A DNA stretch of 64,000 bases from Candidatus Angelobacter sp. (GCA_036495645.1 DASXMN010000011.1:62940-126939); one strand, 5' to 3'. Counted from the stretch's first letter, positions 11,937 to 64,000 are shown. Program-made: numbers and translations. Notes: generated by a model not told the origin, from the letters alone.

Positions 11937-12710
11937 ATGACGACACGCAGTCATGCAATCGACTCCGGCCTGCTGTGGTTTGAGCATCTGTCCCGGGCCC
12001 CAGTACCGTCACTCCGGCTGTTTTGTTTCCCGTATGCGGGAGGAAGCGCAGAGGTGTTCCGCAGATGGCAGCGATGGTTTCCTCCACAGATTGACATGTG
12101 CCTGGTGCACTTGCCAGGCCGCGGCAAGCGCATGGGCGAACAGGCATTCACTCGGATCATTCCTCTGGTGAATGCGATTGCCGCTTGCATCGGCAGCAAA
12201 ACCAACGTTCCATATGCTCTCTACGGACATAGCATGGGCGCTTTGATCGGCTTTGAATTGGCCAGAGAAATCCTTCGCAGGAGCGGCAGCGGGCCGCAGC
12301 ACCTGTTTGTATCGGGCCACCGTGCTCCGCAATTGCCAAGGATTGAACCGGTAACGTTCCACCTTCCTCATGACGAGTTCATCACGGAGCTAAAAAGGCT
12401 CAAAGGCACTCCCGAGGAAGTTTTCGACCACCCTGAGCTCATGGACATATTCATCAGTCTCCTACGAGCAGATTTCGAAGCGGTCGAAACGTACGAATAC
12501 AATCCCGGAGAACAGTTGCCCTGCCCGATTACGGTGTACGGCGGATTCCAAGACGAACATGTGCCGGTAGAAAGCTCTCGAGCATGGCAGGAGCAAACTT
12601 CGTCCTACTGTAAAATCAGGATGTTCAAGGGAGACCATTTCTTTATTCGCAGTCCCGAACCGGAATTCACGAGCGCGTTCCAAAACGATGTCCTGGAATC
12701 TGTTCCCTGA
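11937..12710 (+). CDS. type II thioesterase (editing TE of NRPS/PKS systems)
   Basis: 257 aa. Motifs are LFCFPYAGGSAEVF, the nucleophile elbow GHSMGA and the C-terminal GDHFF. GGAGGA lies upstream of the ATG. Confidence 0.9.
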   Translation: MTTRSHAIDSGLLWFEHLSRAPVPSLRLFCFPYAGGSAEVFRRWQRWFPPQIDMCLVHLPGRGKRMGEQAFTRIIPLVNAIAACIGSKTNVPYALYGHSMGALIGFELAREILRRSGSGPQHLFVSGHRAPQLPRIEPVTFHLPHDEFITELKRLKGTPEEVFDHPELMDIFISLLRADFEAVETYEYNPGEQLPCPITVYGGFQDEHVPVESSRAWQEQTSSYCKIRMFKGDHFFIRSPEPEFTSAFQNDVLESVP

Positions 12711-13197
12711 ATCTGTTTCCTCTTCATGCGTTCCGAAAATTTGAAATGGATTGAAGGCCGGAGATTGCCGCTGCTCGTCTGAAACAGGTCCTCTCTGCCG
12801 CTGCCGCGGAAAACGCAAAGTCCCCGGAGCAGCCGCTTGTTGTTCGTGATACAGGCGGTGATTAGATCGGCTCGATCAATCTCGCTCAGAGAGGTCTTGA
12901 TTCTCCTCCAATAAGCGTCAACGATCTGGTTCAGAGCACGATTGTAGAGACGAAGTAAAATTCGCCGCAAATCGGCTTCGAAGGAGGGCGATTTTCGGCG
13001 GTAGAAAATCGGGTCGTCGGTACATAGAAGGTACCCGACCGAGGACCTGTCAGTAACTTATTGATTTGAGAGCCGGTTAGATGGTGGCTAGGGACGGTGT
13101 AGTGGCACACGGAGTCAAAATGAGTGTGGGTTCCCAATTTTCAGCGCTCGATGAGGTTTTGCGGATGACAATTGAAAGCAACGAAATAACGCGATAC

Positions 13198-14334
13198 TTA
13201 GGATAATTTTTCCTGCGACGCCTCGGCTTTTTGAGCATCGGGCGTATGTGATTGAGCCTTCTCCCTGATCAGCCTCGCCCGGAGTTCCAGCATTGATCGC
13301 GTAACCTCATCTATCTCGCTGGCGCGAAATCCATCGGCTATCTGTGGCAGATATTGCTTGAAGGCATGCTTCGCCGCTTCTCCGAATTCCACATATCCAT
13401 GGTGAAGTATTTTCACGCCATCGGCGACTGCGATTCTTTCATTCCATGCAATTGCCTTCTGTTCTGAAAGATCGGCCGGCAAATTCAACTCCATGCGTGC
13501 GCCCGCTACTCGTACCGGATATCCTCCGGGAAGCCCAAATGGGCCGGGTACGTGGGTTTCCACATCTCGTGCGTCAAGGATGTCGCGCAGCAATACAGCA
13601 GCCGTACATCCAATCACTTTATTGACCTCCAAACCACCGCTTGTTCGTTGGCCTACCAGCAAGCTGCTCACATTCTCGCAACGCTTTCCATCAATCCAGG
13701 CCTGTGCTTCATCCACTCCAGGCTTGGGTGTGTATAAGTGCAGGTGATGGGCCATGACCTGCAAGCGCTGTTGGGGCATAAGACCCAGCGAAGACCGCAA
13801 CGTTGCCGCCAAAAGGGCAATATTGCCGATGCCGCAAAAGACTGGAAGGTCGAGGGCGCGCAACAGTGGATTGACTGCGTCAGGGTAGCAGCCATTGATA
13901 AAAAGAACTGACCGTGAATGCCCGGCAACGGCTTTGGCAAACTTGATTGCGAAAGCTGCCTGCAATGGCAATGTGAAACCAAATCCTGCGCTGCGGAGCA
14001 ACTGCGTCCATGATGAAGGTTGGTGAATACCTTCCCAGGGAGAGTAATAAGAAGCACAGTTTACGACCACGTCAGGTTGAATCGACGAAAGCAGCCTGCC
14101 AGCATCACCTGATTCGGCGTCAAATTCGACGGACTCGAAAATGACCGGTGATTGTATGCTTGCGGCTTTTGCGCGTGAGACATACATCATTTCATTCAAT
14201 TGGCTCCTGGATCGGGCGCAAATAATCACCCGATAAGGCCGGGAAAGCAATAGAGCCAACGAATAAGAAATGGCCCGCGCCAAAGACCCACTGCCGACGA
14301 TCAAGATGGTTGCATTCACGAAGTGTAATTGCAC
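13198..14334 (-). CDS. NAD(P)-binding Rossmann-fold oxidoreductase, saccharopine-dehydrogenase-like
   Basis: The start is set at GTG 14334, 9 nt after the permease stop. The track ATG 14406 would overlap the permease by 64 nt. The N-terminal dinucleotide motif is ILIVGSGSLARA, and DVVVNCAS follows. Size is ~378 aa. The family call is tentative. Confidence 0.4.
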   Translation of the reverse strand: MQLHFVNATILIVGSGSLARAISYSLALLLSRPYRVIICARSRSQLNEMMYVSRAKAASIQSPVIFESVEFDAESGDAGRLLSSIQPDVVVNCASYYSPWEGIHQPSSWTQLLRSAGFGFTLPLQAAFAIKFAKAVAGHSRSVLFINGCYPDAVNPLLRALDLPVFCGIGNIALLAATLRSSLGLMPQQRLQVMAHHLHLYTPKPGVDEAQAWIDGKRCENVSSLLVGQRTSGGLEVNKVIGCTAAVLLRDILDARDVETHVPGPFGLPGGYPVRVAGARMELNLPADLSEQKAIAWNERIAVADGVKILHHGYVEFGEAAKHAFKQYLPQIADGFRASEIDEVTRSMLELRARLIREKAQSHTPDAQKAEASQEKLS

Positions 14335-14342
14335 CTCACTTC

Positions 14343-16772
14343 TTATTCTTCTCTCAGGGCTACAATCGGGTCTACCAAAGTGGCGCGTCGAGCGGGAAGG
14401 TAACACGCGCAGAGCGAAATAACAATCAATGCCGCAACTACAGCCACCAATGTCATGGGATCGAAAGGAGGGACGTTGAATAGCAAGCTGGACACATAGC
14501 GAGTCAGGAAGAACGTGGCCACAAGTCCAATCACTACGCCCATCAGCGTTAACCGCACACCATTGGCCAGCACCAGTTGCAAGACCCGGCCCCGTGATGC
14601 TCCCAGAGCCATGCGTAATCCAAGCTCCCGAGTGCGCTGGGCAACTGAGTATGCCATGACGCCAAAAATGCCGACTGCCGCAAGCACCAGGGCGATACCA
14701 GCAAAGACAGACAACAGAACGGTGCGAAATTTCGGCTCGGAGACAGACTGCGCTACATTTTCTTGCATGCTACGAATTGCAGTAACCGGCTGATTAGGAT
14801 CGATATTGTGCACCACTGAGCGTATAACATTGGTTTGCGCCAGAGGGTCCCCAGCGGTGCGCACAACCAGGGACAGCGTCAAGACTGGAAGCACCTGATC
14901 CGCCTGGCGAAAAGGCACGTACATTTCTGAAGAAGATTCACTGGCCAGAGATTGCTTAACATCAGCAACGACTCCGACAATCTCCATCCAGGGGACACTG
15001 GAATCAGGCACAGCCCCAACTTGTATGTGCTGTCCTATTGGCGACTGGTTGGGAAAATATGTGCGCGCGAAGCTGGAATTGATTACTACTACTGCCGGAG
15101 TTCCTTCTCGGTCGCGATCTTCGATCCATCGGCCGGTCATGAGTGGTATTCCCAGCGTTTTCAAGTAGCCTCCGCTCACGGCACGATAGCTGGCAATGGT
15201 GTACTCCTGGGGAGAGCGGGGAGGGCGACCCTGAATATTGAAGTGGAGAGCCGACCCAGTGCCGGTTACTGGGAGAAAGGATACAGCCCCAACCGAGCGG
15301 ACACCGGGCAGGGCTGCCACCTGCTCAAAGAGACGATCAAAGAAACCCAAACGCACATTCCGATCACTGTACGCGGTGGGCGAACGGACTATATTCGCAA
15401 TTAAGATGTGGTCAGTGGAAAAGCCCGGAGAAACATTGGACAGTCGCTCAAAGCTCTTGAACAGAAGACCAGCCCCAACCAGCAGCAACATAGCCAAAGC
15501 GATCTCAGAAACAACCAGTGCAGCGCGTGTACGCAAAACGGCGCTCACAGCCCCGCCGCGGTTGGTTTCACTCAAAGCTTCACGCGTGTCAATGGTCCAC
15601 GTGTGACGTGCAGGGGCCAGGCCGAACAGAACACCAGGAACAAGAGCAATTAAGGCAGTGAAGCCGAGAACCGACAAATCAATAGAAACGCTATTACTGC
15701 GGGGAAGGCTGCTCCCCGCCAGCCGCGTTAAAAGTGGCACTGCGGCCCAAGCCAACGCGAGCCCCAAAACGCCGCCGGCAACGGCCACCAGGATGCTTTC
15801 CGCCAATAGCTGGCGAATAATGTCGAAGCGCTGAGCTCCCAAAGCGATACAGACTGCCATCTCACGCCGCCGGCCGGTGGCGCGAACAAGCAGAAGATTG
15901 GCGACATTCGCACAGGCAATCAGGAGCACAACTCCCACTGCGCCGATCAAGACCCAAAGCGCAGTGTGAACGTTCTGCACAACCTGCTCCAGCATGGGAT
16001 CCACCAGTGCTGAAACATTGGTGTTCGTTTCCGGATATTGCTGCTCCAGTTGTTTGGCAATCACGGTCATCTCTGAGCGGGCCTGCTCAAGCGAAACATT
16101 CGGTTTTAGTCGGGCTATGGGTAGAATTCCGGGATGCCAGCTACGATCATCCGGCAGTGTTCTGGCCCAGGGCTCAAACGGCAGGATGACATCTGCCGCC
16201 TGCTGAAGGATCTCAAACTTTGGCGGCATCACGCCGATAATCGAATAGTTCTGATTGTCCAAGGTAATGGTCTTGCCAAACACGTCGCGAGAAGACGAAA
16301 ACTGCCGCTCCCAGAGATTATGGCTGATGATCGCCACAGGGGGCGCGCCCGGCTTATCTTCCGCGTCAGAGAAGGTGCGGCCAAATTCCGGTTTGACTCC
16401 TAAGAGATCAAAAAGATTGGCAGTAACATTTTGGGTGGGCAGCCTTTCAGCTTCGGTGACCCCCGTCATGGTCATCACGTTATTACGCACGGCTCCCACT
16501 GCTTCAAACGAGTGGCTCTGGTCGCGCCAGTCCTTGTAATTGAGATAGGACAAGGACAACCTGGGAAACTGCGGCCAATGCTCAGCAAGCAGCACCAGTC
16601 TTTGCGGATCGCGATATGGAAGAGGACGAAGCAGGACAGCATTCACGATGCTGAACATCGCGCTATTTGCCCCGATTCCCAAAGCCAGTGTAAGCACAGC
16701 TACGACGGTAAATCCGGGATTGCTTTTTAACCTGCGAAGCGCAAATTTGAAATTCTGTGCGAGCGTAAACAT
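14343..16772 (-). CDS. MacB/FtsX-type ABC permease of the ADOP (acidobacterial duplicated orphan permease) type
   Basis: 809 aa. The N-terminus is RRLKSNPGFTVVAVLTLALGIGANSAMFSIVNAVLLRPLPY. It has two FtsX-like membrane halves separated by large periplasmic segments. No ATPase gene lies next to it. Confidence 0.8.
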   Translation of the reverse strand: MFTLAQNFKFALRRLKSNPGFTVVAVLTLALGIGANSAMFSIVNAVLLRPLPYRDPQRLVLLAEHWPQFPRLSLSYLNYKDWRDQSHSFEAVGAVRNNVMTMTGVTEAERLPTQNVTANLFDLLGVKPEFGRTFSDAEDKPGAPPVAIISHNLWERQFSSSRDVFGKTITLDNQNYSIIGVMPPKFEILQQAADVILPFEPWARTLPDDRSWHPGILPIARLKPNVSLEQARSEMTVIAKQLEQQYPETNTNVSALVDPMLEQVVQNVHTALWVLIGAVGVVLLIACANVANLLLVRATGRRREMAVCIALGAQRFDIIRQLLAESILVAVAGGVLGLALAWAAVPLLTRLAGSSLPRSNSVSIDLSVLGFTALIALVPGVLFGLAPARHTWTIDTREALSETNRGGAVSAVLRTRAALVVSEIALAMLLLVGAGLLFKSFERLSNVSPGFSTDHILIANIVRSPTAYSDRNVRLGFFDRLFEQVAALPGVRSVGAVSFLPVTGTGSALHFNIQGRPPRSPQEYTIASYRAVSGGYLKTLGIPLMTGRWIEDRDREGTPAVVVINSSFARTYFPNQSPIGQHIQVGAVPDSSVPWMEIVGVVADVKQSLASESSSEMYVPFRQADQVLPVLTLSLVVRTAGDPLAQTNVIRSVVHNIDPNQPVTAIRSMQENVAQSVSEPKFRTVLLSVFAGIALVLAAVGIFGVMAYSVAQRTRELGLRMALGASRGRVLQLVLANGVRLTLMGVVIGLVATFFLTRYVSSLLFNVPPFDPMTLVAVVAALIVISLCACYLPARRATLVDPIVALREE

Positions 16773-16896: not shown

Positions 16897-19800
16897 TCAA
16901 TGCACGGCAAGAGCGGCTTTAAGTTCTTCAGGGCTCATCCTGCGGACCCTAAGCCAAATCTTTGCGATTTTTTCCAGTTCCTCCACAGGGCGTCCGGAAA
17001 TGGAACGTAGCTTCTGGGCAAACTCCATCAGCACCGAATGTTCGAGAAGGGTCGGCACGGAAAGTTCCGTCTGGAAACAGTCATTCACCCGGAACAATAC
17101 ACGGAGCGCGAGCAATGATTGTCCACCCAACGCGAAGAAGTCGTCATGACGGCCTACTTGCTCCAATTTGAGCACCTCCGCCCAAATGGCCGCCACCACG
17201 GTCTCAAGGTCTCCCTGCGGCGGTACATACTTATGCACCGCATACGCATCCCCTTGGGGCGCTGGCAAACTTTTACGATCCAGCTTGCCATTCGGCGTCA
17301 AGGGCAAAGATTCCAACTGCACATACGCTGCCGGAACCATGTACTCCGGCAAACGCTCGCGAAGAAAGGAGCGCAGATCGGAGCGCAGGGATTCGGGACC
17401 CGGTAAAGCATGCGGAGCTGAAGGGCAATAGTAAGCCACCAAACGCTTCTCTCCATGCGCGTCTTCCCGTACTATGGCTATCGCTTCCTCCACTGCGGGG
17501 TGCTCCTGCAGTCGCGCAGTAATCTCCCCAAGTTCAATACGGAATCCGCGAATCTTTACCTGATCGTCGTTCCGCCCCACAAATTCCAGGCTCCCGTCTG
17601 CCAGCCATCTCCCTACGTCGCCTGTTTTGTACATGCGCGCACCCGCTTGTCCTATATAGGGATCGGGCACGAAGCGCTCCGCCGTCAAATCCGGCCGATG
17701 CAAATATCCTCGGGTTACACCCGCTCCCACGATGTATATCTCCCCTGCTACACCGACCGGAACTGGTTCTCCTTGCCCATCCAGGATGTACACCCGCGTG
17801 TTCGCAATCGGCCGGCCGATCGGCACTGTTTGCCTGCTCAATGAGCGGGTACAACAGTGCATGCTCGCCCACACCGTACCTTCGGTAGGACCATACTCAT
17901 TGAATAGCTCAACTTGAGGTTGTTGCTGCGCTGACTTTGCCACTAAGTCCGGTGGGCAAACCTCGCCCGCAACGATCACCCGGGAAATCTGTTGCTTCTG
18001 TTCGCCGCCAACGGGATATTCCAAAAAGTGCCTATATAAAGATGGAACACAGAGCAGGGTTTCCACTCGCAGACGTTGAACCTCTTGGTTGAGACGCAAT
18101 GGATCGTGAACTAAATCATCTGGGGCAATGATTAACGTGCCCCCATGGATAAGACTTCCAAAGATACCTGCCACCGAACTATCAAAGGAGATGGAAGAAA
18201 GTAGCAAAAAACGGCCCAATTGACCGTAAGCCAGCTTCCTGGCAAAGGTTGAGCTCACAAGATTCTGGTGACTCACCATGACGCCTTTGGGCTTGCCGGT
18301 GGAACCAGACGTGTAAAGAACATAGGCCAGATGCCCAGCGATGAGCTTCGAGCCGGCAGCCTCTGGATTGCTCTCCGGTTGGCTGTTCCAAACAGCATCC
18401 GTCAAATCCAGTGTGGGCAGGCCAGCAGGCAATGACCCCATCCGCTCCCTTACTTGAGCTTGCGTCAGGAGGGCGACCGGTTCACTATCCTGCAGCATGT
18501 ACTGCAAACGTTCCGGCGGATAGGCCGGATCCAGTGGCACATAGGCACCCCCTGCCTTGAGTATGGCCATGAGTCCTACAATCATCTCCAGACCCCGCTC
18601 CACGCAGATGGCCACCCGCGCTTCCGGCTTCACTCCCAGAATCAAAAGATAATGCGCCAATCGATTTGCTTGCCGGTTCAGTTCACCATACGTCAACTGC
18701 CGCCCTGCATACTCCACCGCTGTCGCTCCGGGGGTTCTCTCCACCTGCTCCACGAACAATTCGTCAATGCGCTTGTTTGAGGGATATTCAACCCCAGTCT
18801 CATTCCACTGATACAGAACTTGCTCTCGCTCCCTTTCACTGAGCATGCCCAGGCGATCCACCATCTCCCATTCCTGCGCTACCATTCCTTCCAGCAATCT
18901 GCAGAAATATCCAAGGTAGCGTTTGACGGTGCCGGGCTCAAACAACGCGATGGCATACTCCAACCCGCCGATGATCGTCCCATTTACCTCCTGCAAAATA
19001 AGTGTCACGTCGAATTTTGCCGGCTGATAAGGTATCGACTCCAGCAGCTTCGCTTCCACTCCTGGAAGCATAATGGTCCCCCCTGGCTCGTTCTGCCAGC
19101 CGAAGGTCGCTTGAAACAGGGGGTGATGGGCCAGACTGCGCTCCGGTCTTACTATCTCCACTACCCGCTCAAACGGCAGGTTGTGGTTCTGTTGCCCTCC
19201 CAATGCCACTTCCTTCACCCGTTTGAGTAACTCTTTTACTGTCACGGCGCTGCTTACATCCACGCGCAGGGCCAGAGTATTCACAAAAAATCCAATCAGC
19301 CCCTCAATCTCCGCTCGCTCCCGATTAGCCACCGGCGTGCCGATCACCACCTCTGTCTGACCCGACAGTCGTGACAGCAACGCTGCCCAGCCAGCCAGCA
19401 GCGTCATATATAAGGTTGTTCCCTGACGCCAGCTTAGTTCTCTCAATGCCGCCGTCAATCCCTGCTCAAGTACCAACTCCTCAATACCTCCCCTATAGTC
19501 CTGCTGCGCCGGTCGCGCATGGTCCGTGGGTAACTCAAGCATCGCTGGTGCGTCCTGCAAAGCTCTTTTCCAGTACTCGCACTGCTGCGCCAATACGTCT
19601 CCTTCCAGCCACTGCCGTTCCCAGATCGCATAGTCCGCATACTGGACTGCTAACTCCGGCAATGGGTCTTCTTCGCCGCGCCGGAAGGCACTATACAATT
19701 TGCTCACTTCATTACGAAAAATACCCATGGACCACCCATCGGAAACGATATGGTGCATGGTGATGAGCAACGTGTGTTCATCCTCCGACTGGCGGATTAG

Positions 19801-22800
19801 TCGACCGCGGATCAACGGTCCCGTTTGCAGATCAAAAGATGCGTTGGCCTCCTCGGCCACAAGGCGGTTCAGTTCCGCGTTCGCATCCCGATGCTGACGC
19901 AGGTCCTGCTCCAGCAGATGAAACCGGCTGTCTGCAGCCGAGGCAATGTGCTGCCCGGGTTCTCCCTCAACGGAGACGAAAGTAGTGCGCAATGCTTCAT
20001 GTCGCGCCAAGATCCGGTCCAGCGACCGCCGCAAGGCTCCAGCATCCAACTCGCCCTTCAAATGCAGGCCCATCGGCACGTGATATGCATGGCCAGCCTC
20101 CGCTATCTGCGCCAAAAACCATAAGCGTTGCTGCGCAAACGACAACGGTAACCGCTGCCCTCGCTCCGCACGCACAATCGCCGGCAACTTGGCTCGCGCT
20201 GCGCCTTTCAGACTACTGGCCAGGTCCGCCAGTACTGGATGCGCAAACAGATCCCCTACCGTCATGGCCATATCCAACTCTTGCCGGATGCGCGTGACGA
20301 CTCGCGCCGCCAGGAGTGAGTGTCCACCCAGAGTAAAAAAATTATCGCACCGGCCGACTTGTTCGACGTGGAGCAACTCAGCCCATACCTCGGCGAGCAT
20401 TTTCTCCGTCTGCCCCTGCGGAGCTTCGTACGGTTGGGCCGCATACGCATCTGCTCCTGGGGCCGGCAATGCCTTACGGTCGAGTTTCCCGTTCGCGGTC
20501 AGTGGCATCTGGCCCATCCGGACATATACCGTCGGCACCATATACTCCGGCAGTTTTGCTTCAAGCCAGCGACGAAGTTCAGGTGCAAGACCTTCAGACA
20601 GAAGTGGCTGCAAAGGATCGTTGGAATAAATTTGCGGCCGTCCTAAGATTTCAGTCTCTCCCGGAAACCTCACTCTCCTGGCCTCCTTCGCATTCTTACC
20701 ATCGCCACGTCTGCGGAATAGCACGTCACAGAGCGCGGGTCCGCTTTGGGACCAGCGAACCTCGATGCTATAAGGCAAATCTTCTTCCAGTAACCAAATA
20801 TCTTCCAACTCAATCGCGCATTGCTGTTCACGGTCTAATTGGCGCCGCAGTTCGCCTACGGTAGCCGGGCAATGGCTTGAATGAAGAATTCGCGTGGCCG
20901 TGACATCGCGCTGGACTCGAGAGTTCGGAATGCCTGCCACCCCCAGCACTTCGGGCCCGGTCCGGTTCAAGATCTCCCGTAGCCGCTCTGGACTCAAATC
21001 CTTCTCGCTCCAATCAATCCAATGACATTCCAAAAACGTAACGGGCCTGCCCACGTGAAGCACGACATCATAGCGGAAGCTTGTGAGTTCATTGCCCGCG
21101 TAACCCCGTTTCAAATTGATTTCCACCCGGCTGATCTGCGGCAAGCGTTGCGGTAAGCTGGTGAAGAATTCCGGGGAAATAGCCAGCTCGCTCTCCTGCT
21201 TCAAATTTTTTTGCGCACTCTCCCGCACTTCCTGGCATAAGCGGGAATCTGGCGACTGGAAGAATTCAACCGAAGTATGGAAGGTTTCCAGCAATGGAAA
21301 ACTGCGCACGTCCCCGATAAAAATCTTCCCTCCTGGCGGTAAGGATTCCATCGCACCGGTCAGCACGGTCATTAAATATTGGACAGCGGGAAAATACTGG
21401 ACTACTGAGTTCAAAACGACCGCATCAAATTTCTCGCGCTCCTCCGGAACATCGAATTCATGCGCTGCTTTGCAATCCAGCTCTATTGCAGGCAAATTCA
21501 GCTCAGAGTGGTGTATCTGCTGCTCCAGAAAATCCAACACTGCTCGTGACACGTCGGTTCCGCGGTAGTAGACGCAGATGGGTGCAATGCGAAAGAGCAA
21601 CAGTCCTGTGCCGCAGCCAATTTCCCAGACCCGCTTCGGTTCCAAGGAAAGAATCCGTTGCACAGTGGTCTCTACCCAAACCTGCATCTCCTCTGCTGGA
21701 ATCGGCTGACCCGTGTAGCTGCTATTCCACCCGGCAATGTTGAAGGCCGAGTCTTTAACTGTCTCTGTCTTGCGGTAGGCTTCATCGAAGGTCATTGCCC
21801 ATTCCGATACCTGACCCGCACTGAAGTCCGCCCGCTTTTTGTTCTGATTGAGGCCACGATAATCCTTGTCGGGGACAAAGTAGGCCACCAGGCGTTTGTC
21901 CCCGGGGGTGTCTTCCCGCGCCAGCACCACGGCTTCTGCTACTCCCGCATGCTCGCGCAGCCGCGCCTCAATCTCGCCCAACTCAATGCGGAAGCCGCGG
22001 ATCTTGACCTGATGATCGTTGCGGCCCAGGAACTCGATGGTGCCATCGGGCAGCCATCGGCCCAGGTCGCCGGTCTTGTACATGCTAGCCTGCGCATCCT
22101 GAACGAAGGGATCGCGAAGGAAGCGTTCTGCGGTAAGCTCCGGGCGATTGAGATAGCCATGAGCCACGCCTGCACCGCCGATGTATAACTCTCCCGTCAC
22201 CCCCACCGGCACCGGCTCTCTCTGACCGTCTAATATGTAGATACGCGTGTTCCCGATGGGACGTCCAATGGGAATGCTCTGGCCCTCGCTCACCTTCAGA
22301 ATTTCGTACGTGGCAGCAAAAGTGGTGGTCTCAGTGGGCCCATAGCCATTGAGCAGGTGTTGCGGCGGGTTGTTCCGCAGCACCCGCCCAATGGTCACCG
22401 GGTCCAGCACATCACCTCCGACCAGCAGATAATGCAAGCTGCCCCAGTCAGCGCTCAACTTTTCGGCGTACTGGTTGAACAGGCCCACGGTCAGCCACAG
22501 AATGCTCACCTGATGCTGCTGCAAGGCTTGTGAGAATCGCGCCGGATCCAGCAGCACATCCTGGGCAATGACCACGATGCGTGCGCCGTTGAGCAGTGGC
22601 GCCCATACCTCCAGCGTGGTGGCATCAAAGGCCGGATTGGCGGCCATGGCCACCCGGTCGGTAGCGTCAAAGCGAGCAAAGCCGTTGTTCAGCACCAGCC
22701 GCTGGATGGCGCGGTGCGGCACCATTACCCCTTTGGGGGTTCCCGTCGAACCCGAGGTAAACATGATGTAGGCCGTAGCCTGGCTGCTTACGTTTATGCC

Positions 22801-23316: not shown

Positions 23317-23352
23317 GGTTTCTCCCACGAAGTCCTCGACGCAAAAGGGTGT

Positions 23353-55856: not shown

Positions 55857-56378
55857 TTTTTAAAAAACTCTTAATTTTTTGATGGGGCTTAAATTCAGGA
55901 GCTCCCTGATTGGAAGATGGAATACCCTGGTCATTGATGGAGGCGGACCAAAAATGTGGAAGTCAGAGCCCCTGATTGATGACCTGCAAGCGGACTATCA
56001 CCACCCGTTTAACAACCTACTTATTAGTCTATTAGTTTAAAAGGTTTTTCGGGTTGATTGTTTACATAAAATCCAGCTCTCGATTGGAAAAATCGTGAGT
56101 GGCATCGCTACCGCCCCATCCTTCTCATCCGCATACTTGTTTATGCAAATGCCGATAGGGGTCTGGGATGAGGTTTATTAGACCAATATAGAAAATACTG
56201 ATGCATTCGTAGAATGCTGGGATAAAGCTCAAGAAAATATAAGCTGTTACACAAATCTTGGCTGGCACAAATGCGCAGTGATCCAATTCAGAAAAGGACG
56301 AAAATCCCTTTCAAACTTTTGCGGGGCATGCATAATTGGCATGCATCATTTCTGTATGGATTCTCTTTGAAATCTTTC

Positions 56379-57455
56379 TTAACCCAATTGCGGATTAATT
56401 AAGCTTTTAGACGCGGAACCTGCAACTACATTTTCCAAGGCCGCATTCGCTTCGCTCAAGCCAAAAAATTTCAGAGGAATCGCTGACCAGGCAGCGGAGC
56501 GAGAGGGATCTGTCATCATCCGCACGGATTTATAAAAGTGAGAAAAGTCAGCGCCCCAACAGCCACGCACGTCAAGGTGCTTTTTATTCAAATCCAAGTG
56601 CGGATTGAAAAGTACGTCGCCCGCATTCGTGTATTGACCAACAATGACCACACGTCCCGCATCGCGCGTGTACCGCATTGCATCAACTACAGCGGTGGGA
56701 TTGCCCGTGGCTTCAATCGTCACATCCGCTCCTCTTCCATCGGTAAGGTCGCGGATCCAGTCTAATCGTTCGGCTTCTGTACAGGTTGAGAAGTCCTTGG
56801 TTTTATGTGCGCCTACTTGCCTGGCCACCTGCAAGCGAGCTTCCGGGGCGCCCAGGCAAAAAACGCGATGTGCGCCACGCAGCAACGCACAAATAATGAT
56901 GGATATACCCACTGGACCACTCCCGAGTACCAGCACTATGTCTCCCAGTGAGATCTCCGCGCGCTCCACTGCGTGCAGGGCCGTGGGCAATGAACAACCA
57001 CCGGCCATGAATCTTTGCGGATCCACGCCATTCAGGCTCAAACAGCGCGTATTCGGCTTAAGATAAATCGATTGGGCCCATCCGCCCGCCAAGCCATCCT
57101 TGACTCCATATGTGACCCCATAAACTTTCCTCTTCGGACAGCGTGTACTTGCCTTTGCCACAGCGCAATACCAACACACACCGCATGTTCGATGGACATC
57201 AAGAAATGTGACTTCATCTCCTTCGCGAAATCGGCGGTCCTCAGAGTCAACTAAATTGCCACGTATTTTGCTCAGAAAGCCCACTGAGACGTGCCCGGGA
57301 ATGATTGGATAGGGCACATCGGCCAGGTGCCCCGCATGCAAGTGAATATCTGTGCCACAGACCTCGCTTAGGCGAACATCCAGGATCGCTGAGTTCATTT
57401 CCAGTTCGGGTTCTTCAAACTCGCACACCTGTATAGGGAGAAACGGTTTTTGCAT
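56379..57455 (-). CDS. zinc-dependent medium-chain alcohol dehydrogenase/reductase
   Basis: The start is set at ATG 57455 (MQKPFLPIQVCEFEEPELEM), giving 358 aa. It has the catalytic Zn region CGTDIHLHAG...PGHV, the structural Zn cluster CGVCWYCAVAKASTRC and the Rossmann motif VLGSGPVG. The 75 upstream codons of the track ORF are rejected. Confidence 0.8.
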   Translation of the reverse strand: MQKPFLPIQVCEFEEPELEMNSAILDVRLSEVCGTDIHLHAGHLADVPYPIIPGHVSVGFLSKIRGNLVDSEDRRFREGDEVTFLDVHRTCGVCWYCAVAKASTRCPKRKVYGVTYGVKDGLAGGWAQSIYLKPNTRCLSLNGVDPQRFMAGGCSLPTALHAVERAEISLGDIVLVLGSGPVGISIIICALLRGAHRVFCLGAPEARLQVARQVGAHKTKDFSTCTEAERLDWIRDLTDGRGADVTIEATGNPTAVVDAMRYTRDAGRVVIVGQYTNAGDVLFNPHLDLNKKHLDVRGCWGADFSHFYKSVRMMTDPSRSAAWSAIPLKFFGLSEANAALENVVAGSASKSLINPQLG

Positions 57456-57730
57456 GACCGCTGCTAAAATTTTTGGCAAGAGTTTACCTCGGCTTCCTGC
57501 GAATTTACCTGGAGTGTGGCTCCCAGGGACGGAAAAGACAAGATTAGCCCCGGGCCTCAAGCAGTAGAGGGAATCGGGATAAATACGTGAGATTCCGGCG
57601 TTCCAATGAATTTCCCGAATACCAGCTTTCGTAAACCATAACCCGGCAGCACCGCATTTCCAAACATAAAATAAGTTCACATTTGCGTCTACATTCCGCC
57701 TTGATGCCTGACAATAGCAGGAAGGACTTT

Positions 57731-58957
57731 ATGGGCACGGCAATCACACCAATCGCTTCTACCGCTACGATCGAGCATCCGCTACGCAATCCCCAGTATC
57801 GCCTTTGGCTGATCGGCGGGACGATATCATTTCTCGGCGACCAGTTCTATATGGTGGCGTTACCCTGGTTGATTCTGCAGCAGACGGGATCGGCTGTGGC
57901 CATGGGCGCGGTCCTGATGGCGGGATCCATTCCGCGCGCTCTTCTAATGCTCATGGGCGGGGTCCTGAGCGATCGCATGTCCGCGCGTAAGATCATGATG
58001 ACCACAGCCGCAACGCGTACCATCTGTGTGGCCGTAATCGGAGTTCTCATCTGGTTCGGCATTCTTCACATGTGGGAACTCTACGCGTTGGCGGTTATTT
58101 TTGGCTTGGCCGATGCATTTGCCGCTCCCGCATCAACAGCCTACTTGCCTTCTCTGTTGCAGCCTGAACAACTGGTGGCGGCCTCCTCGGTCGGCCAAAG
58201 CACGGCACAATTAACAAGCATCGTTGGCCCCGTTCCGGCAGGATTTGTAATCAAGGCCCTGGGTGTAGCATGGGCGTTCTTCGTGGACGCAGTCAGTTTC
58301 CTGTTCATCATCGGCGCACTCTGGAAGCTGCCTGACCCACCTAAATCTCAGGCTGCGACGAAAGCGGTATGGCCCGCGATTGCAGAGGGTATTGCCTACG
58401 TGGGAAGAGATGTGCCCCTGCGCTCTTTGATGCTGCTGGCCATGACCATGAACTTCTGCTTTACTGGGCCGGTTGCGATTGGTCTCACCTACCTGGCCAA
58501 GACCCGCTTTGGTTCACCTGCCATATTGGGGACTTTGATGTCGGCTGTTGCCGTGGGAAGTCTGTTGGGCGCGCTGCTGGCCGGCGTGTGGAAGATTCGC
58601 AGGCGCGGTGTCCTGATGCTTCTGGTGGCAGCGGCATTGGCTCCTTGCCTCGGATCCATTGGGCTCATAGGCAGTGTGTGGCCCCTTGCCGGGGTGCTAT
58701 TTACGATCGGCGTTTTGGCGGCCTTGATGAACGTCCACATCGGTGCCTGGGTAATGCAGCGGATTGATGCAGCGGTGCGGGGGCGAGTGGCAAGTGTGCT
58801 CATGCTTGCCACTTTCGGAATCATGCCCATCTCTTTCGCCGTTGCCGGATTCCTGATTGCATGGAACCTGAAGTTCACGTTTCTGATCGCTGGCCTGGCA
58901 ATGTTCCTGACTGCTGCCGGAGCGTCATTCCAGAAGCCGGTCCGAGAGATCGAATAG
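57731..58957 (+). CDS. MFS transporter (EntS/DHA3-like exporter)
   Basis: The start is set at ATG 57731, preceded by AGGAAGGA. The N-terminus NPQYRLWLIGGTISFLGDQFYMVALPWLILQ is characteristic of this family. It is hydrophobic with 12-TM-like periodicity and has the motif MGGVLSDRMSARK. Confidence 0.8.
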   Translation: MGTAITPIASTATIEHPLRNPQYRLWLIGGTISFLGDQFYMVALPWLILQQTGSAVAMGAVLMAGSIPRALLMLMGGVLSDRMSARKIMMTTAATRTICVAVIGVLIWFGILHMWELYALAVIFGLADAFAAPASTAYLPSLLQPEQLVAASSVGQSTAQLTSIVGPVPAGFVIKALGVAWAFFVDAVSFLFIIGALWKLPDPPKSQAATKAVWPAIAEGIAYVGRDVPLRSLMLLAMTMNFCFTGPVAIGLTYLAKTRFGSPAILGTLMSAVAVGSLLGALLAGVWKIRRRGVLMLLVAAALAPCLGSIGLIGSVWPLAGVLFTIGVLAALMNVHIGAWVMQRIDAAVRGRVASVLMLATFGIMPISFAVAGFLIAWNLKFTFLIAGLAMFLTAAGASFQKPVREIE

Positions 58958-59115: not shown

Positions 59116-59814
59116 TTAAGCGGATTTTGCGCTCACTTCCATGCTCTCGGCGTTCTTTTTGTTGTCGAACACCTGGCTGAGTTCGGAAAAGAAAGCGATC
59201 CACAAGCGCCACATCTCTTCAGCACTACTTACAACCCGTTGATAGTCATCGGTTGAGAGCTCTGGTTCCAGGGCGTTACTCGCCTTATCAACGTGGTTTG
59301 GTTCCTGAAGAACGTGTATGTCCACCCAAGGAAGGTTCTTCATGCCGCTCACTTGCCGAACCGCCGCGCCGATTCCGGAAACCATGGCCAGATCGGCTAC
59401 CTCGGTCCCATATACAAAGCCGAGCGCGCTGGCGTGCTCAGCGGATGCGGATTCGTATCCCTTAATAAGTTTGCGAGTGGATTCAAGTGGAGGAGCTTCG
59501 GCGACCTCGTGTTGAGAAAAGCCTGCGGCAGCCATCGTTTCCAGGTAGATGCGTTCATGGGCCATGGCCGGATTGCCTTCTCCAAGTTCCTGGGACAAAA
59601 TGGCACAAATCGCGGTTTTCGTCTCGAGCCAGGGGACGACTGAAATACTTCTTGAAAGAAAATTGGGGAAATAGTGTAAGGGATGCCACCACTGTCCCAG
59701 AAAAATTGCGACGTCACTGCGCGTAAGCAGTCCAGATTTGATCTCACCGAAAAAACGATGGTGAATCAGGTCTTTTCTCAGAGCATTATTTTTCAGTGAA
59801 TCAAGAACAGTCAT
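59116..59814 (-). CDS. heme-oxygenase-like fold iron-dependent enzyme (TenA/PqqC/HDO-type, DUF3865-like)
   Basis: 232 aa and predicted all-helical. The blocks SQELGEGNPAMAHERIY, VYGTEVADL and QEPNHVDKA give E/H ligand spacing like heme-oxygenase-like diiron oxidases. The family call is tentative. Confidence 0.45.
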   Translation of the reverse strand: MTVLDSLKNNALRKDLIHHRFFGEIKSGLLTRSDVAIFLGQWWHPLHYFPNFLSRSISVVPWLETKTAICAILSQELGEGNPAMAHERIYLETMAAAGFSQHEVAEAPPLESTRKLIKGYESASAEHASALGFVYGTEVADLAMVSGIGAAVRQVSGMKNLPWVDIHVLQEPNHVDKASNALEPELSTDDYQRVVSSAEEMWRLWIAFFSELSQVFDNKKNAESMEVSAKSA

Positions 59815-60026: not shown

Positions 60027-60236
60027 GATTTTGCTGTCAATTGCAGAGTGTCTAAGAATGCATCCAAGTGCATGCCCATATCAACGCTGAAGCCATGTTA
60101 TTGTGTGAAAAGATGATGAGCGACGCACGGCTGAAGCTGACTTCCTGAAGCTTAGCGCACGCATGTCCGGTCAATGTGCGCCGATATAGGACGAAGAAGT
60201 CCGAGTCCGCGGATTTTTTGATGAAGGAGTTGAACG

Positions 60237-61877
60237 ATGCCCGATAACGAGCAGTTGTACCTCAGACCGAACATACAGGTTGAGCCTTTGATCGATGGCT
60301 GGTACGCCTGGCCTCACCTTATTCCTCCCGCAACTGCGGCAAGAAACATAACCGAGCGTCATATGAAAATCATGGATTCCTACATCAATATGCCGCTGGT
60401 CCATGCGAATGCGGTCAAAAACCCTAAAATGCTGGGCGGACCGTTCATCGATTATGGAGGGAAACGGGTCGATGAGATTCGTGCCTTGCGGAACCATATT
60501 AAGCGGGAGCGTGCGCACCTGATTGAATTATCCGCTGCACTCGTAGAACTGGACGTCGCATTGAGGGGAAGCGCGAAGGGGTACAGCCTGCTTCCTTTAT
60601 ACGAGAAAATTCCAGCCATCCTGCGAGGTTATGTAGAGCTCGTTTACGACCTGAACAATCATCCTTCTTTCCGCCTGATCGAACCATTGCTGTACAGAAG
60701 CCGCTATTATGACCGCTCACAGCAGAGCGTGAGACTTTCGAAGATATCAAATGACGATCGGCCATTTGTGCTGAGTACGCCCAGGCTGGAAAGCGACGAC
60801 GCGCTTCATCTCCATATTCCATTCGATAGTCCGGTGATCGACGATCTGTTCCGGCTGAAGTCATCTCACCGTCCATGGTGCGAGATCAAGGAAATGCTTC
60901 AGGTACCGGCTTCCCATGATGAGCTGCTGCGCTCCTTCCTTACGCCGGAGCCGTCGCCGCACTATTCGCCTTATACCGGTCCCGGGGTGCGCTGGAGATA
61001 TTTTGGGCACGCCTGCATCCTGATAGAGTCGCAGGGCGCCAGCATGGTATTTGACCCGGTCCTCAGCTATACCTACGAGAACGGAATTTCCCGCTACACT
61101 TATCTCGATTTGCCCGACGAGATCGATTACGTCTTAATAACCCATAATCATCAGGACCACATCCTGTTTGAAACCTTGCTGCAAATCCGGCACAAGATCA
61201 AGAATATTGTCGTGCCGCGCAATAATCCTGGCCATCTCCAGGACCCTTCTCTGAAACTCATTCTCGAGAATTGCGGCTTCCGAAACGTGATTGAGTTGAA
61301 CGAACTTGAGGAAATCCGCGTTGGAAACCTGTCCATCACTGGACTTCCTTTTCTTGGCGAGCATGCAGACCTGGACATTCATAGCAAAATGTCATGGTTG
61401 GTCAAGCTGGGGTTGCACACCCTGCTGTTTGCAGCAGATTCCTGCAACATCGACCCCGCACTGTATGAACATCTGCACAGGGAATTCGGAGATGTAGATG
61501 CACTTTTCCTCGGAATGGAATGCGATGGCGCCCCGCTGAGCTGGCTCTATGGACCGCTTCTTTCCAAGAAGCTTGAGCGCGGCATGGATGAATCGAGGCG
61601 GCTTGCCGGCTCCAATTATGAACAAGCAATGAACATCGTTAATTCCCTTAACTGCAGGGAAGCATACGTTTATGCCATGGGACAGGAGCCGTGGCTGAAT
61701 TACATCATGAGCGTAAAATACACAGAGCAATCACGCCCGATTATGGAATCGACCAAACTAATTAATGCTTGTCACGAACGCGGAATCGTCGCGGAAAGGC
61801 TCTACGGAGAAAAAGAAATTCTTCTGGAACCGAAGTCTGCTCCACATGTAGCGCAACCGGTGGCCATAAGAGCGTGA
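60237..61877 (+). CDS. CmlA-like non-heme diiron beta-hydroxylase (N-terminal domain + metallo-beta-lactamase fold)
   Basis: 546 aa. The C-terminal half has the MBL signature ITHNHQDH plus downstream acidic/His ligand candidates (GEHADLD, FAADSC, GMECDG). The ~250-aa N-terminal domain and overall size match CmlA-type enzymes, which hydroxylate carrier-bound amino acids. Confidence 0.55.
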   Translation: MPDNEQLYLRPNIQVEPLIDGWYAWPHLIPPATAARNITERHMKIMDSYINMPLVHANAVKNPKMLGGPFIDYGGKRVDEIRALRNHIKRERAHLIELSAALVELDVALRGSAKGYSLLPLYEKIPAILRGYVELVYDLNNHPSFRLIEPLLYRSRYYDRSQQSVRLSKISNDDRPFVLSTPRLESDDALHLHIPFDSPVIDDLFRLKSSHRPWCEIKEMLQVPASHDELLRSFLTPEPSPHYSPYTGPGVRWRYFGHACILIESQGASMVFDPVLSYTYENGISRYTYLDLPDEIDYVLITHNHQDHILFETLLQIRHKIKNIVVPRNNPGHLQDPSLKLILENCGFRNVIELNELEEIRVGNLSITGLPFLGEHADLDIHSKMSWLVKLGLHTLLFAADSCNIDPALYEHLHREFGDVDALFLGMECDGAPLSWLYGPLLSKKLERGMDESRRLAGSNYEQAMNIVNSLNCREAYVYAMGQEPWLNYIMSVKYTEQSRPIMESTKLINACHERGIVAERLYGEKEILLEPKSAPHVAQPVAIRA

Positions 61878-62236
61878 CCCCAATGTGAACCTTGGCGCTA
61901 CGGCAGTCGACAAGATGGAAATGATGGCAATTCCCATGTTTGCCGATGATTCCTTTCACTCTCCTTATTTCGATCGGTCGTATACGCAGCTTTCGCCCAC
62001 AACGACACTCGTAAAACTGCGAGGGATTAAGGTATTTGAGTTAATAAACCGATTGCGCGTTCCAAAATAGAACAGCTCTGCTTTTCCAGCTCTCAATTAC
62101 GATTGAATCAGACTAATGAATCTTGTTTAATTGGTTTACTAGCCGCTGGCCCCTTCTCACCTTGACCGGACTGGCGTCTTAATCACCACGATCTTCGACC
62201 GTGTGCAGCGGTAGTTTTTTCTGGCACCGGCGCTCG

Positions 62237-64000
62237 ATGAGGTTCTGTTCTGTGGACGCACGCGTTAAGCCCGTTGCCTTGATAAGCATGCCCTGCCTTT
62301 CTGCGCGCTTTCCTTCCTTTCAGCTTGCGCTGCTTAAACCCACTCTCGAAGAGGCAGGCATTCCAGCACAGCCCTTTTCCATGTTTATGTACCTGGGCAA
62401 CCAGATTGGCTGGCGCATCAGTGAAACCATTGCTGACGTATGGCCTTCGCTGGTCGGCGAGTGGATCTGGTCCAAGGCCGCATTTGGCGATGAAATCAAC
62501 ACGGACGACGACGAAGAATACTTTGCCGCGCATGAAAATGTGTTTGCCGCCGTTTGTCATTATGGCAAATGTACTCTGGATGACCTGCGTCGCGTTCGCT
62601 ATGAGTCTGCTCCTCAATTCATTGATTTTTGTGTGAATAGCACAGACTGGAACCGCTTCGGGTTGATCGGCTTCACCGTAGTGTTCCAGCAGCTTATTGC
62701 AAGCCTGGCCCTGGCCCGCGCTTTGAAGCAAAAGTATCCGCATATTCCAATCGTTCTGGGCGGAGCCAGCCTGGAAGACGATATCGCAGACGAAGTGATG
62801 AAAGGCTGCCCGAAGGTTGACTATGTGCATTGTGGCGACGCTGAAATCTCTTTTCCTAAAATGGTGCACAGGCTTTATGCCGGTCAGAGCATGGAAGGCG
62901 TTCCCGGCATCATGTGGCGTAATCGCGAAGGCGAGGTGCGCTATGCCGGGCGTGCGCCCAATTTTCTGAATATGAATGACACACCTGTACCCGATTTTGA
63001 CGAATATTTTTACGCTCGCAAGGCCAGCGGCTATGAGGCATCCCCCGGCGCACGTGAACCGCTGCTCCCCTTTGAAGCCGCGCGTGGTTGCTGGTGGGGA
63101 GAAAAGAACCATTGCACTTTCTGCGGCCTGAACCGTTCAGGGATGGAATTTCGCGCCAAGGATGCAGACAAGGTGATTGAGCAGTTGGATGTGCTTTCCC
63201 GTCGCTACGGCCAGCTTCAATTCAATGCCATAGATAACATCATGGCGCCCGAATACACGGAAAAGCTTTTCGGTAAACTCGCGGCCGCCAACAGTGACAT
63301 TAAGGTCCACTATGAGATTAGGCCAAATTTCTCCCGCCAGCAGCTCTCGCGGCTCAGACGTGGGGGATTGTTCTCCGTGCAGCCCGGCGTTGAGAGTCTC
63401 TCCACTAACATTCTCAAGATTATGCGCAAGCTTTCCACCGGCATGCGCAATGTGGAACTTATTAAGTGGTGCACGTACTACGGAATCAATAATCTCTACA
63501 ACATTCTATGCCGTTTCCCAGGTGAGACCGTTGAGGACTACGCAAGCCAGTGCGAGGTAATCGCCAGAATTCCACATTTCCAACCGCCTTATGCAATCGT
63601 AAGGGCGCGGGCAGATCGCGGATCGCCCATGTACACAGAGTCGGCATCGCAATCCATTTCAGATCTGGTCCCGGCCAGGTGCTACAACTACCTGCTGCCT
63701 CGAGGCAAATTCAATTTGTATCGCATCTCCTACTACTTTGAGCACAAGATGGCCAACACCGTGGATGATTCGGTTTATGACGAAATTTTCCGTCGCGTAG
63801 AAGCTTGGCAGGAGCAGTGGAAAAATGCCAGGCGTCCTTACCTGCGCTATCAGAAGGCATGGTCCTCCATCCGCGTTTTAGATGGAAGAGGTGAGAACCT
63901 GCGCACTTTTGTCATCGCAGACGAGCCGGCAGCGCTCTATGAGTACTGCGCTGAAGCCCGGACACCGCGTGACATCGCTGCGAAATTCGGCGCTGAGCCG
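62237..64000 (+). CDS. B12-binding-domain radical SAM enzyme (class B, RiPP-maturase/C-methyltransferase-like), 3' end beyond window
   Basis: It is not in the ORF track because there is no stop in the window. My translation from ATG 62237 reads MRFCSVDARVKPVALISMPCLSARFPSFQLALLKPTLEEAGIP...IVLGGASLEDD...PFEAARGCWWGEKNHCTFCGLN...SVQPGVESLS... It has the radical SAM cluster motif CxxxxxxxCxxC and a B12-like N-terminal domain, and stays open to nt 64000. The minus-strand ORF 62183-63112 is its antisense shadow. Confidence 0.75.
   Translation, partial: MRFCSVDARVKPVALISMPCLSARFPSFQLALLKPTLEEAGIPAQPFSMFMYLGNQIGWRISETIADVWPSLVGEWIWSKAAFGDEINTDDDEEYFAAHENVFAAVCHYGKCTLDDLRRVRYESAPQFIDFCVNSTDWNRFGLIGFTVVFQQLIASLALARALKQKYPHIPIVLGGASLEDDIADEVMKGCPKVDYVHCGDAEISFPKMVHRLYAGQSMEGVPGIMWRNREGEVRYAGRAPNFLNMNDTPVPDFDEYFYARKASGYEASPGAREPLLPFEAARGCWWGEKNHCTFCGLNRSGMEFRAKDADKVIEQLDVLSRRYGQLQFNAIDNIMAPEYTEKLFGKLAAANSDIKVHYEIRPNFSRQQLSRLRRGGLFSVQPGVESLSTNILKIMRKLSTGMRNVELIKWCTYYGINNLYNILCRFPGETVEDYASQCEVIARIPHFQPPYAIVRARADRGSPMYTESASQSISDLVPARCYNYLLPRGKFNLYRISYYFEHKMANTVDDSVYDEIFRRVEAWQEQWKNARRPYLRYQKAWSSIRVLDGRGENLRTFVIADEPAALYEYCAEARTPRDIAAKFGAEP

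Follow-up and report, generated by a model that had tools for sequence, protein, structure and literature searches.

What does the large nonribosomal peptide synthetase (NRPS) and polyketide synthase (PKS) locus of Candidatus Angelobacter sp. encode, and is it a working biosynthetic gene cluster (BGC) or what is left of one? The window analysed here, a stretch of 64,000 nucleotides (GCA_036495645.1, DASXMN010000011.1:62940-126939), carries four NRPS genes (NRPS1 to NRPS4), one PKS module and an extender-unit cassette, all read in the same direction. Judged from its sequence, the locus is very likely an intact and selectively maintained BGC of about 50 kb, making a hydrophobic nonribosomal peptide that is interrupted by one two-carbon ketide. 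According to the accessible parts of a survey of the genus (Crits-Christoph et al., ISME Commun 2022, PMC9723581), which do not describe the present cluster individually, Candidatus Angelobacter is uncultured, holds up to ~10% of its genome in BGCs, and is rich in orphan NRPS/PKS clusters, often with MacB-type efflux genes beside them; in that survey, BiG-SCAPE linked none of the Ca. Angelobacter BGCs to MIBiG. No paper describing the cluster, a matching pathway or the product was found in the searchable literature, MIBiG lying outside the comparison, in line with a first-pass annotation of this DNA, which had not recognised any characterised pathway.

The operon consists of 11 open reading frames (ORFs) on the minus strand, listed from 13198 to 55856 of the 64-kb window, with no gap above 216 nt, exactly as had been annotated; the widest gap lies between the FkbH and NRPS3 genes. 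The tight junctions claimed at first pass could also be seen when the sequence was read directly. The NRPS2 and PKS genes overlap in ATGA, NRPS1 and NRPS2 are separated by 4 nt, and the gap given as 9 nt is the spacing of ~10 nt between ACAD and FkbH, provided that an in-frame GTG at 32622 is the FkbH start. We mapped domains by Pfam, NCBIfam and an internal phmmer search of all the proteins, for which single C, A and T domains of NRPS1 served as seeds. The domain strings came out precisely as first read: C-A-T-C-A-T-C-T for NRPS1 (47691..55856, 2721 aa), C-A-T-C-A-T-C-A*-T for NRPS2 (38159..47686, 3175 aa), where A* denotes a defective A domain, KS-AT-T for the PKS, C-A-T-E-C-A-T followed by a 45-aa tail for NRPS3 (23353..31323, 2656 aa), and A(MT)-T-C-A-T with a tail for NRPS4 (16897..23328, 2143 aa). 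Pfam E-values for the C, A and T domains range from 0 to 1e-24; with matches of E-value 0 to 1e-40 on ORFs of 2-3 thousand codons, chance can be set aside. Altogether, the NRPSs hold ten C/E domains, a single E domain among them, as well as ten T domains and one MT embedded in an A domain, besides the single KS-AT-T. The HHxxxD motif is kept in all ten C/E domains and the GGxS serine in all T domains. Of the A domains that would go with the ten T domains, only nine are functional, a correction to the 10 NRPS modules counted at first pass. Neither a TE nor an R domain was found by Pfam and NCBIfam in any synthase of the window or in the conserved core, so that the chain-releasing domain of a hybrid NRPS/PKS is lacking here, and the terminal C(-T) of NRPS1 is a candidate for this role.

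The cluster belongs to a family common to many acidobacterial species. The PKS has ~80 close relatives (as 90%-identity clusters) at 75-96% identity, and those with names come from metagenome-assembled genomes (MAGs) of Candidatus Angelobacter or Ca. Sulfotelmatobacter. Among GTDB species representatives, FkbH is matched at 78-90% only in MAGs of Ca. Angelobacter, Terriglobia, Ca. Sulfotelmatobacter and Acidobacteriaceae, the next tier being cyanobacterial at ~60%; none of these representatives was 100% identical, so that the host would be a species or strain of this group not sampled there. The last gene of the operon, ORF402, has the same host distribution, including an ortholog (P0185, 80% identity) annotated in Ca. 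Angelobacter sp. Gp1-AA117. Since all orthologs at 75-96% derive from Candidatus Angelobacter, Terriglobia or Ca. Sulfotelmatobacter MAGs, the acidobacterial host proposed at first pass is borne out; NCBI taxonomy places Candidatus Angelobacter in Terriglobia, Acidobacteriota, and the strong match of the ADOP permease agrees with such a host. The whole operon recurs on the 2.25-Mb JGI contig Ga0556623_0000001 (about 1,632,659-1,685,000), there in the same order, as well as on a 95-kb ENA contig and a 289-kb NCBI MAG contig, and parts of it in ~13 species-level MAGs and 13 metagenome contigs. Comparing relatives (loci with L numbers below) via the loci around FkbH, Zn-ADH, ORF402 and PKS, we found the conserved unit to be MFS (divergent)/Zn-ADH-NRPS1-NRPS2-PKS-3HCDH-ACP-ACAD-FkbH-NRPS3-[NRPS4]-ADOP-ORF402, a core that measures about 46 kb.

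NRPS1 and NRPS2 are 50% identical, colinear across 2666 aa and share an N-terminal head, and both end in a third module that departs from the usual C-A-T order. The third module of NRPS1 has no A domain, and that of NRPS2 has the remnant A*, which lacks the motifs A3, A5, A7, A8 and A10 as well as Asp235 and Lys517, and from which ~130 residues across the binding pocket (A4-A5 region) are deleted. On these sequence features A* is truly dead. The ratio of nonsynonymous to synonymous substitution rates (dN/dS) is 0.11-0.26 throughout, A-less modules included: active domains stand at 0.11-0.17, NRPS1 C3 at 0.13-0.17, the T3 domains of NRPS1 and NRPS2 at 0.12-0.21, and A* at 0.25. The A-less third modules are thus under purifying selection and not decaying, and the C-T and C-A*-T modules would take part in synthesis, their loading presumably being done in trans or by an A domain next to them. 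Modules of this kind, loaded in trans or by a neighbour, occur in syringomycin SyrE (module 9) and yersiniabactin HMWP1/2. Like those, the two modules here keep HHxxxD and the T serine under purifying selection; unlike those, they have no dedicated stand-alone A-T loader evident in the present core. Both A-less modules, as the colinear paralogs indicate, arose via duplication of the whole trimodular gene. The first A domains (44870-46777 in NRPS2 and 53082-54995 in NRPS1) share 83% DNA identity along 1.9 kb, much more than the 50% at which the proteins agree elsewhere, which suggests gene conversion between NRPS1 and NRPS2. The terminal T of NRPS1 is variable among orthologs: an intact T (GGYS) follows C3 in the window, L087 and L095, and in L084 and L168 the protein stops after C3, with no T behind it. 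When the C3-T3 end of NRPS1 was used as a homolog query, all matches were fragments of <1000 aa.

The PKS gene (34965..38162) encodes a type I module without KR, DH or ER. Its KS has an intact Cys-His-His triad (TACSTS, EAHGS, LGHL), and the serines of the AT (GYSIG) and of the T domain are present. Next to it lie the four genes of the cassette, also on the minus strand. These encode an FkbK/ZmaG-like protein of the 3-hydroxyacyl-CoA dehydrogenase family (3HCDH; 34079..34993, ORF to 35023; PF02737/PF00725; orthologs called at 302-303 aa), a discrete FkbJ/ZmaD-like ACP of 85 aa (33797..34054; PF00550), an FkbI/ZmaE-like protein of the acyl-CoA dehydrogenase family (ACAD; 32633..33784; PF02771/PF02770/PF00441), and an FkbH-like HAD-IIIC phosphatase/acyltransferase (31540..32622, ORF to 32718; orthologs called at 360 aa) that matches TIGR01686 with 270.6 bits against a cutoff of 146.65. 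This block is syntenic in all relatives. A stand-alone methyltransferase or FkbG-type O-methyltransferase was not found among the window proteins, the sole MT being the one inside NRPS4, within its first A domain. Because FkbH, ACP, 3HCDH and ACAD occur together without an O-methyltransferase, the cassette implies, by analogy with FK520 and zwittermicin, a hydroxymalonyl-ACP extender, and the four-gene cassette of this type named at first pass is complete. The motifs of the AT are mixed in this respect (HAFH and VCR are dealt with below), with that of the active site resembling ATs for ACP-linked extenders: GYSxG is kept in ~110 of 116 homologs, and the zwittermicin ZmaA-AT, which is the fourth best match in the Protein Data Bank, has GYSFG, with GYSLG in ZmaF (PMC4207774). 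PKS and cassette stand together even in distant phyla (Nostoc, Pyrinomonadaceae, Holophagales). In cyanobacteria, many of them, and in further phyla, the FkbH/ACAD/3HCDH block (~60% identity) has a KS-AT-T PKS (51-53%) beside it together with NRPS genes, for instance in L015-L017, L020, L021, L025 and further loci (Nostoc, Scytonema) and in L023, L052 and L071 from other Acidobacteriota. From such comparisons, the cassette and this type of PKS travel together across phyla. Beyond Acidobacteriota, the relatives of the PKS reach no more than ~50-56% identity, and none has a product name.

The remaining synthetases, NRPS3 and NRPS4, are encoded past the cassette. The first C domain of NRPS3 (HHLITDF) is the most divergent in the cluster, none of the others being more than 34% identical to it, as would suit a ketide donor arriving from the PKS. 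The C domain after the E domain is the most different one apart from it, and a second N-terminal His motif, sought as the mark of dual E/C domains and hence of more D-residues, was present in no C domain. NRPS4 begins with a normal initiation-type A-domain start and is the only synthetase to begin with an A domain. Into this first A domain, between A8 and A9 and before the last 35 residues, an MT of ~430 aa is inserted, carrying VWEIGCGTG and NELTSFRY, which match motifs of NRPS N-methyltransferases. Thus, the one E domain and the one A-embedded MT from which a D-residue and an N-methyl residue had been predicted are both present. NRPS4 is missing in L005 (DASSXL010000202.1, also L168) and L008 (JAIQGL010000035.1), where the ADOP gene directly follows NRPS3, and its identity to the copies of L082, L166 and L167, which have other A-domain codes, is 61-68%, as opposed to ~85% for the neighbouring genes. 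NRPS4 is hence an optional, fast-evolving part of the cluster. The 3' ends of NRPS3 and NRPS4, covering the last T and the 45-aa tail, share 78% DNA identity over 233 bp (16909-17141 in NRPS4 and 23365-23597 in NRPS3), against ~35% identity for the remaining protein. Both tail types are kept across species, and these direct repeats flank NRPS4, so they could mediate its gain and loss. At the loci without NRPS4, the coding tail is of the NRPS3 type, and in L008 the downstream spacer is of the NRPS4 type, an arrangement compatible with, though not proof of, an origin by recombination between the tails.

Which residues would be incorporated can be estimated from the binding-pocket codes, which were extracted against a GrsA segment that, as a self-check, reproduces the published DAWTIAAICK. 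DALWLGGVFK, found in both NRPS1-A1 and NRPS2-A1, and DALWLGGTFK of NRPS4-A1 are presumably Val-like. DLFNNALTYK (NRPS1-A2) we tentatively take to be Ala-like, DVQFNAHAAK (NRPS2-A2) Pro-like, and DAFFWGGTFK (NRPS3-A1) Ile/Val-like, all by comparison with code tables. The two other codes are DPFFLGATFK (NRPS3-A2) and DSALIAEVWK (NRPS4-A2). The residues would tentatively comprise three to four Val-like ones, Ala, a Pro-like one, an Ile/Val-like one, one unassigned hydrophobic and one probably aromatic residue. The codes, the MT and the single E domain together point to a hydrophobic peptide with one N-methyl and one D-residue. The NRPS3 codes are kept in six relatives; across species, those of NRPS2-A2, NRPS3-A1/A2 and NRPS1-A2 are kept, and those of NRPS4-A1/A2 and NRPS2-A1 vary. 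In one relative, NRPS4-A2 has DAWTVAAVC instead, presumably a Phe code. The NRPS2-A1 code of L168 is DAWQYGLID, which we assume to be Gln-like. The loss of NRPS4 and the code change in L168 indicate natural congeners, probably built around a conserved Pro-like-X-glycolate-D-aa-aa portion. The size of roughly a decapeptide given at first pass is uncertain, with two A-less modules, an optional NRPS4, a non-colinear line and no release domain.

How, then, would the assembly line run? The most likely order is NRPS4, NRPS1, NRPS2, PKS and NRPS3. NRPS4 is placed at the start because it is the only protein beginning with an A domain, and it would contribute N-methyl-Val and one further residue; in species without NRPS4, the line would start at a C-A-T module. 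By analogy with FK520 and zwittermicin, FkbH would load a glyceryl unit onto the discrete ACP, and the two dehydrogenases would oxidise it to hydroxymalonyl-ACP, which the KS would join to the peptide arriving from NRPS2. With no KR in the module, the unit would stay alpha-hydroxy-beta-keto, unless the Zn-ADH or ORF402 reduces it in trans, as is possible. NRPS3 would then add one D- and one L-configured hydrophobic residue, and the chain would be released by a trans-acting enzyme or a C domain instead of a fused TE or R domain, and exported by the ADOP permease and the MFS pump.

Several observations weigh against this scheme, touching its order, its extender unit and its residues. The absence of NRPS4 from two species leaves the order unsettled, and docking does not discriminate between orders, NRPS3 and NRPS4 having a common tail and NRPS1 and NRPS2 a common head. 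No release catalyst was recognised among the cluster proteins, and loss of the terminal T of NRPS1 does not correlate with the presence of NRPS4 among the orthologs compared. At the YASH position, the AT shows the motif classically linked to malonyl-CoA, HAFH, and its counterpart of the 'MXW' triplet for ACP recognition reads VCR, of which the first position alone is hydrophobic. No residue could be assigned to DPFFLGATFK and DSALIAEVWK, and the A-domain predictions as a whole are tentative, made by comparison with code tables. The order might instead strictly follow the genes, with the first C domain of NRPS1 acting as a starter that N-acylates residue 1 to give a lipopeptide, and NRPS4 adding the last two residues. 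This would suit the gene order and the tight translational coupling; the synthetases of species lacking NRPS4 all begin with C or KS, so that a start at C-A-T is required there, and the last synthetase before ADOP always has the same T-plus-tail. We consider it unlikely, as NRPS4 offers no C domain to take over the NRPS3-bound chain, the supposed starter C is 48-52% identical to internal elongation C domains of NRPS2 and not of a distinct type, and the cluster holds no fatty-acyl ligase or acyl-ACP source. An order of NRPS4, NRPS2, PKS, NRPS3 and NRPS1, equally improbable in our estimate, would have the terminal C domain of NRPS1 release the chain by hydrolysis, cyclisation or amine capture, which would explain the missing TE throughout the conserved core. 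Each of the like tails could then pair with one of the like heads, C3 is as constrained as the active domains, and some NRPS1 orthologs do end in a bare C. However, the intact T behind C3 in the window and two relatives speaks against a terminal C, the likeness of heads and tails may reflect duplication and recombination only, and NRPS1 is encoded first and coupled translationally to NRPS2.

The remaining alternatives concern the extender unit, the extent of the cluster and its integrity. FkbH-only systems exist, and the glyceryl-ACP made by the cassette might go elsewhere, for example into a glycerate unit or tetronate-type chemistry, with the PKS using malonyl-CoA, as HAFH in its AT would suggest. 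The syntenic presence of both dehydrogenases for the oxidation of glyceryl-ACP, the GYSxG motif that the AT shares with ZmaA-AT and ZmaF, and the lack of a tetronate-forming FabH-like gene make this quite improbable. We give the same small chance to a cluster that extends beyond the right edge, as the first-pass annotation had claimed, with a B12-radical SAM enzyme as a tailoring enzyme. B12-radical SAM methylases do occur in some non-ribosomal pathways, and a plus-strand radical SAM gene does start near 62252, 375 nt past the CmlA-like gene, and runs off the edge. But its 648-aa product matches TIGR03975 ('RiPP maturation radical SAM C-methyltransferase', RiPP standing for ribosomally synthesised and post-translationally modified peptide) with 528.3 bits against a cutoff of 281.85; PF04055 is above the Pfam cutoff, and the B12-binding PF02310 scores 23.7 bits, below the cutoff of 32.1 bits. 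L001, a 12.9-kb Logan contig with an exact match to the CmlA-like protein, lengthens the window by 3.3 kb, and there the gene continues (L001:7873-9819), followed by a 972-aa PRTase-AMMECR1 fusion (L001:9831-12749), which is unrelated to NRPS chemistry. Neither gene adjoins the cluster in any relative examined, and in two relatives unrelated genes stand directly past MFS (molybdopterin oxidoreductase and carboxylesterase in one; a kinase, a lipocalin-like protein and an outer membrane protein in the other). From this synteny, the window probably contains the end of the NRPS-PKS cluster, which would lie no further than 61877, and the gene crossing the edge most likely belongs to a separate, possibly independent RiPP-type locus; a radical SAM gene is present as annotated but would not count as a flank of the cluster. 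As for integrity, the complete loss of catalytic motifs in A*, the missing A domain of NRPS1, the loss of NRPS1 T3 in some lineages and the missing release domain would be expected of a decaying, non-functional remnant; given that the long ORFs are all uninterrupted, that the same architecture recurs in more than 80 sequence clusters at 75-96% identity and that dN/dS is low even in the A-less modules, decay is extremely improbable.

Returning to the intact cluster with NRPS4 as starter, two further products of the operon follow the NRPS genes, both encoded on the minus strand. The ADOP permease (14343..16772), a duplicated MacB/FtsX-type protein, matches TIGR03434 over its full length with 971.7 bits against a cutoff of 622.3 and contains two MacB_PCD and two FtsX stretches. 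It is thus a member of the ADOP family, as named at first pass, and its position after the last NRPS gene is kept in relatives. ORF402 (13198..14319, ORF to 14406; 373 aa, or 373-402 aa depending on the start) has no Pfam or NCBIfam match and appears to be a Rossmann-fold NAD(P)-binding protein. It begins with a GSGSLA Rossmann motif, and its AlphaFold2 model (pLDDT 92) resembles NAD-dependent dehydrogenases of the lactate/malate dehydrogenase type in Foldseek with a TM-score of ~0.5. Calling it an oxidoreductase is therefore reasonable by fold, but this TM-score is too loose for a specific reaction.

Besides the radical SAM gene, the flanking genes listed at first pass (thioesterase, Zn-ADH, MFS, heme-oxygenase-like enzyme and CmlA-like hydroxylase) are all present, but only two of them are core. 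The Zn-dependent medium-chain alcohol dehydrogenase family gene (Zn-ADH, 56379..57455, minus strand), upstream of NRPS1, stands beside NRPS1 in 13 metagenome loci, and the MFS transporter gene (57683..58957, plus strand), divergent from Zn-ADH, is the conserved right boundary. The heme-oxygenase-like di-iron enzyme (HDO; 59116..59814, minus strand; PF14518) occurs in six relatives and is accessory. The CmlA-like di-iron beta-hydroxylase (60237..61877, plus strand; CmlA_N with 308 bits and a metallo-beta-lactamase fold) occurs in three relatives (L094, L100, L167), and the L167 copy lies on the opposite side, after ORF402. Beta-hydroxylation, foreseen at first pass as probable, is hence plausible in this strain but not a family trait. 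On the other side, the gene past ORF402 differs in every genome compared. The stand-alone type II thioesterase (11937..12710, plus strand; PF00975, 156.7 bits), convergent with the operon, was found in no relative, is missing from the flanks of L082, L166 and L167, and was seen only in this genome. The 522-nt intergenic region upstream of NRPS1 (55857..56378, minus strand) contains blocks that do not vary among nine relatives, for instance TATGGTCTAATAAA and ATTAGAGTTT right ahead of the start codon, and is probably a promoter, an operator or a 5' leader. A structured RNA was considered for this region and rejected, as alifold gave a weak -5.85 kcal/mol and Rfam no match; the Rfam scan of the whole window returned zero matches.

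A search among the small ORFs, meant to reveal a precursor peptide or a protein of the MbtH type, gave no family matches. No precursor peptide gene was recognised for the radical SAM locus in the window and L001. Between the CmlA-like and the radical SAM genes lies a small plus-strand ORF (61885-62070; 61 aa, or ~51 aa from an internal Met) without family match, which could be a precursor peptide or nothing. A 309-aa minus-strand ORF (62183-63112), antisense to the radical SAM gene and without family match, is almost certainly not a gene. The left flank (1-9600) looks catabolic, with a 2Fe-2S protein, two CoA-transferase subunits, a PaaA/PaaC-like protein, an aldehyde dehydrogenase, an enoyl-CoA hydratase and also a TetR regulator, and has no relation to the cluster. 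A DUF5666/DUF4382 protein (9825-11402, plus strand) is encoded just outside the cluster, and a distant DUF5666 protein (33% identity) near the cluster of one relative, at L167:14678-16087; this proximity is probably coincidental.

All the enzymology met here is of known kinds: NRPS, type I PKS, a glycolate-extender cassette, CmlA-type and HDO enzymes, and MacB/ADOP efflux. A close likeness is to the hydroxymalonyl-ACP branch of zwittermicin A, whose ZmaN/ZmaD/ZmaG/ZmaE provide the same loader, discrete ACP and two dehydrogenases, also with no O-methyltransferase, and whose ZmaA has a cis AT with the same His-to-Tyr change in GHSxG (GYSFG there, GYSIG here). The similarity is at the family level only, for zwittermicin has GAAH where the present AT has HAFH, the PKS module here is without KR, an aminomalonyl branch is absent, and the surrounding NRPS architecture is unrelated. 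Homologs of FkbH, FkbJ, FkbK and FkbI likewise stand in one block as in the fkbGHIJK set of the FK520/ansamitocin type, which differs by its FkbG O-methyltransferase, for which the present window has no counterpart. With CmlA of chloramphenicol biosynthesis, the CmlA-like protein has in common the CmlA_N domain and the metallo-beta-lactamase fold of a family that hydroxylates carrier-bound amino acids; it differs in occurring only in a subset of related clusters and at varying positions. The BGC repertoire described in the accessible parts of the Ca. Angelobacter survey (PMC9723581) has in common with our locus the large NRPS and NRPS-PKS hybrids, the MacB-type efflux and the genus-level host. 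The BGCs reported there are mostly singletons, few of them common to species, whereas the present cluster family occurs in very many contigs and species. What goes beyond the accessible account in that survey is a cluster family widely common to species, with non-canonical features under selection.

Orphan megasynthase clusters are what this genus is already known for, and to the specialist a further one comes as no surprise. A more far-reaching interpretation, which we regard as possible but doubtful, would make it a signature cluster of the abundant soil genus Candidatus Angelobacter, founding a structurally new family of N-methylated, Val-rich peptide-glycolate hybrids, with duplicated A-less modules loaded in trans, NRPS4 swapped between species by recombination at the T-tail repeat, and TE-free release by the terminal C domain or ORF402. 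If so, several textbook rules of assembly would be broken, and species-specific A-domain swaps would yield congeners. Non-canonical NRPS logic could usefully be probed on the A-less modules and on release without a TE, and as a target for heterologous expression or synthesis, a cluster family that selection has kept in dozens of species and in many soils is preferable to a singleton BGC. According to the accessible part of a recent preprint (bioRxiv 10.1101/2025.10.02.680145), Acidobacteriota rank with the most abundant bacteria of soil, and experimental confirmation exists for few of their metabolites. The product of the present cluster could matter for their competition in soil.

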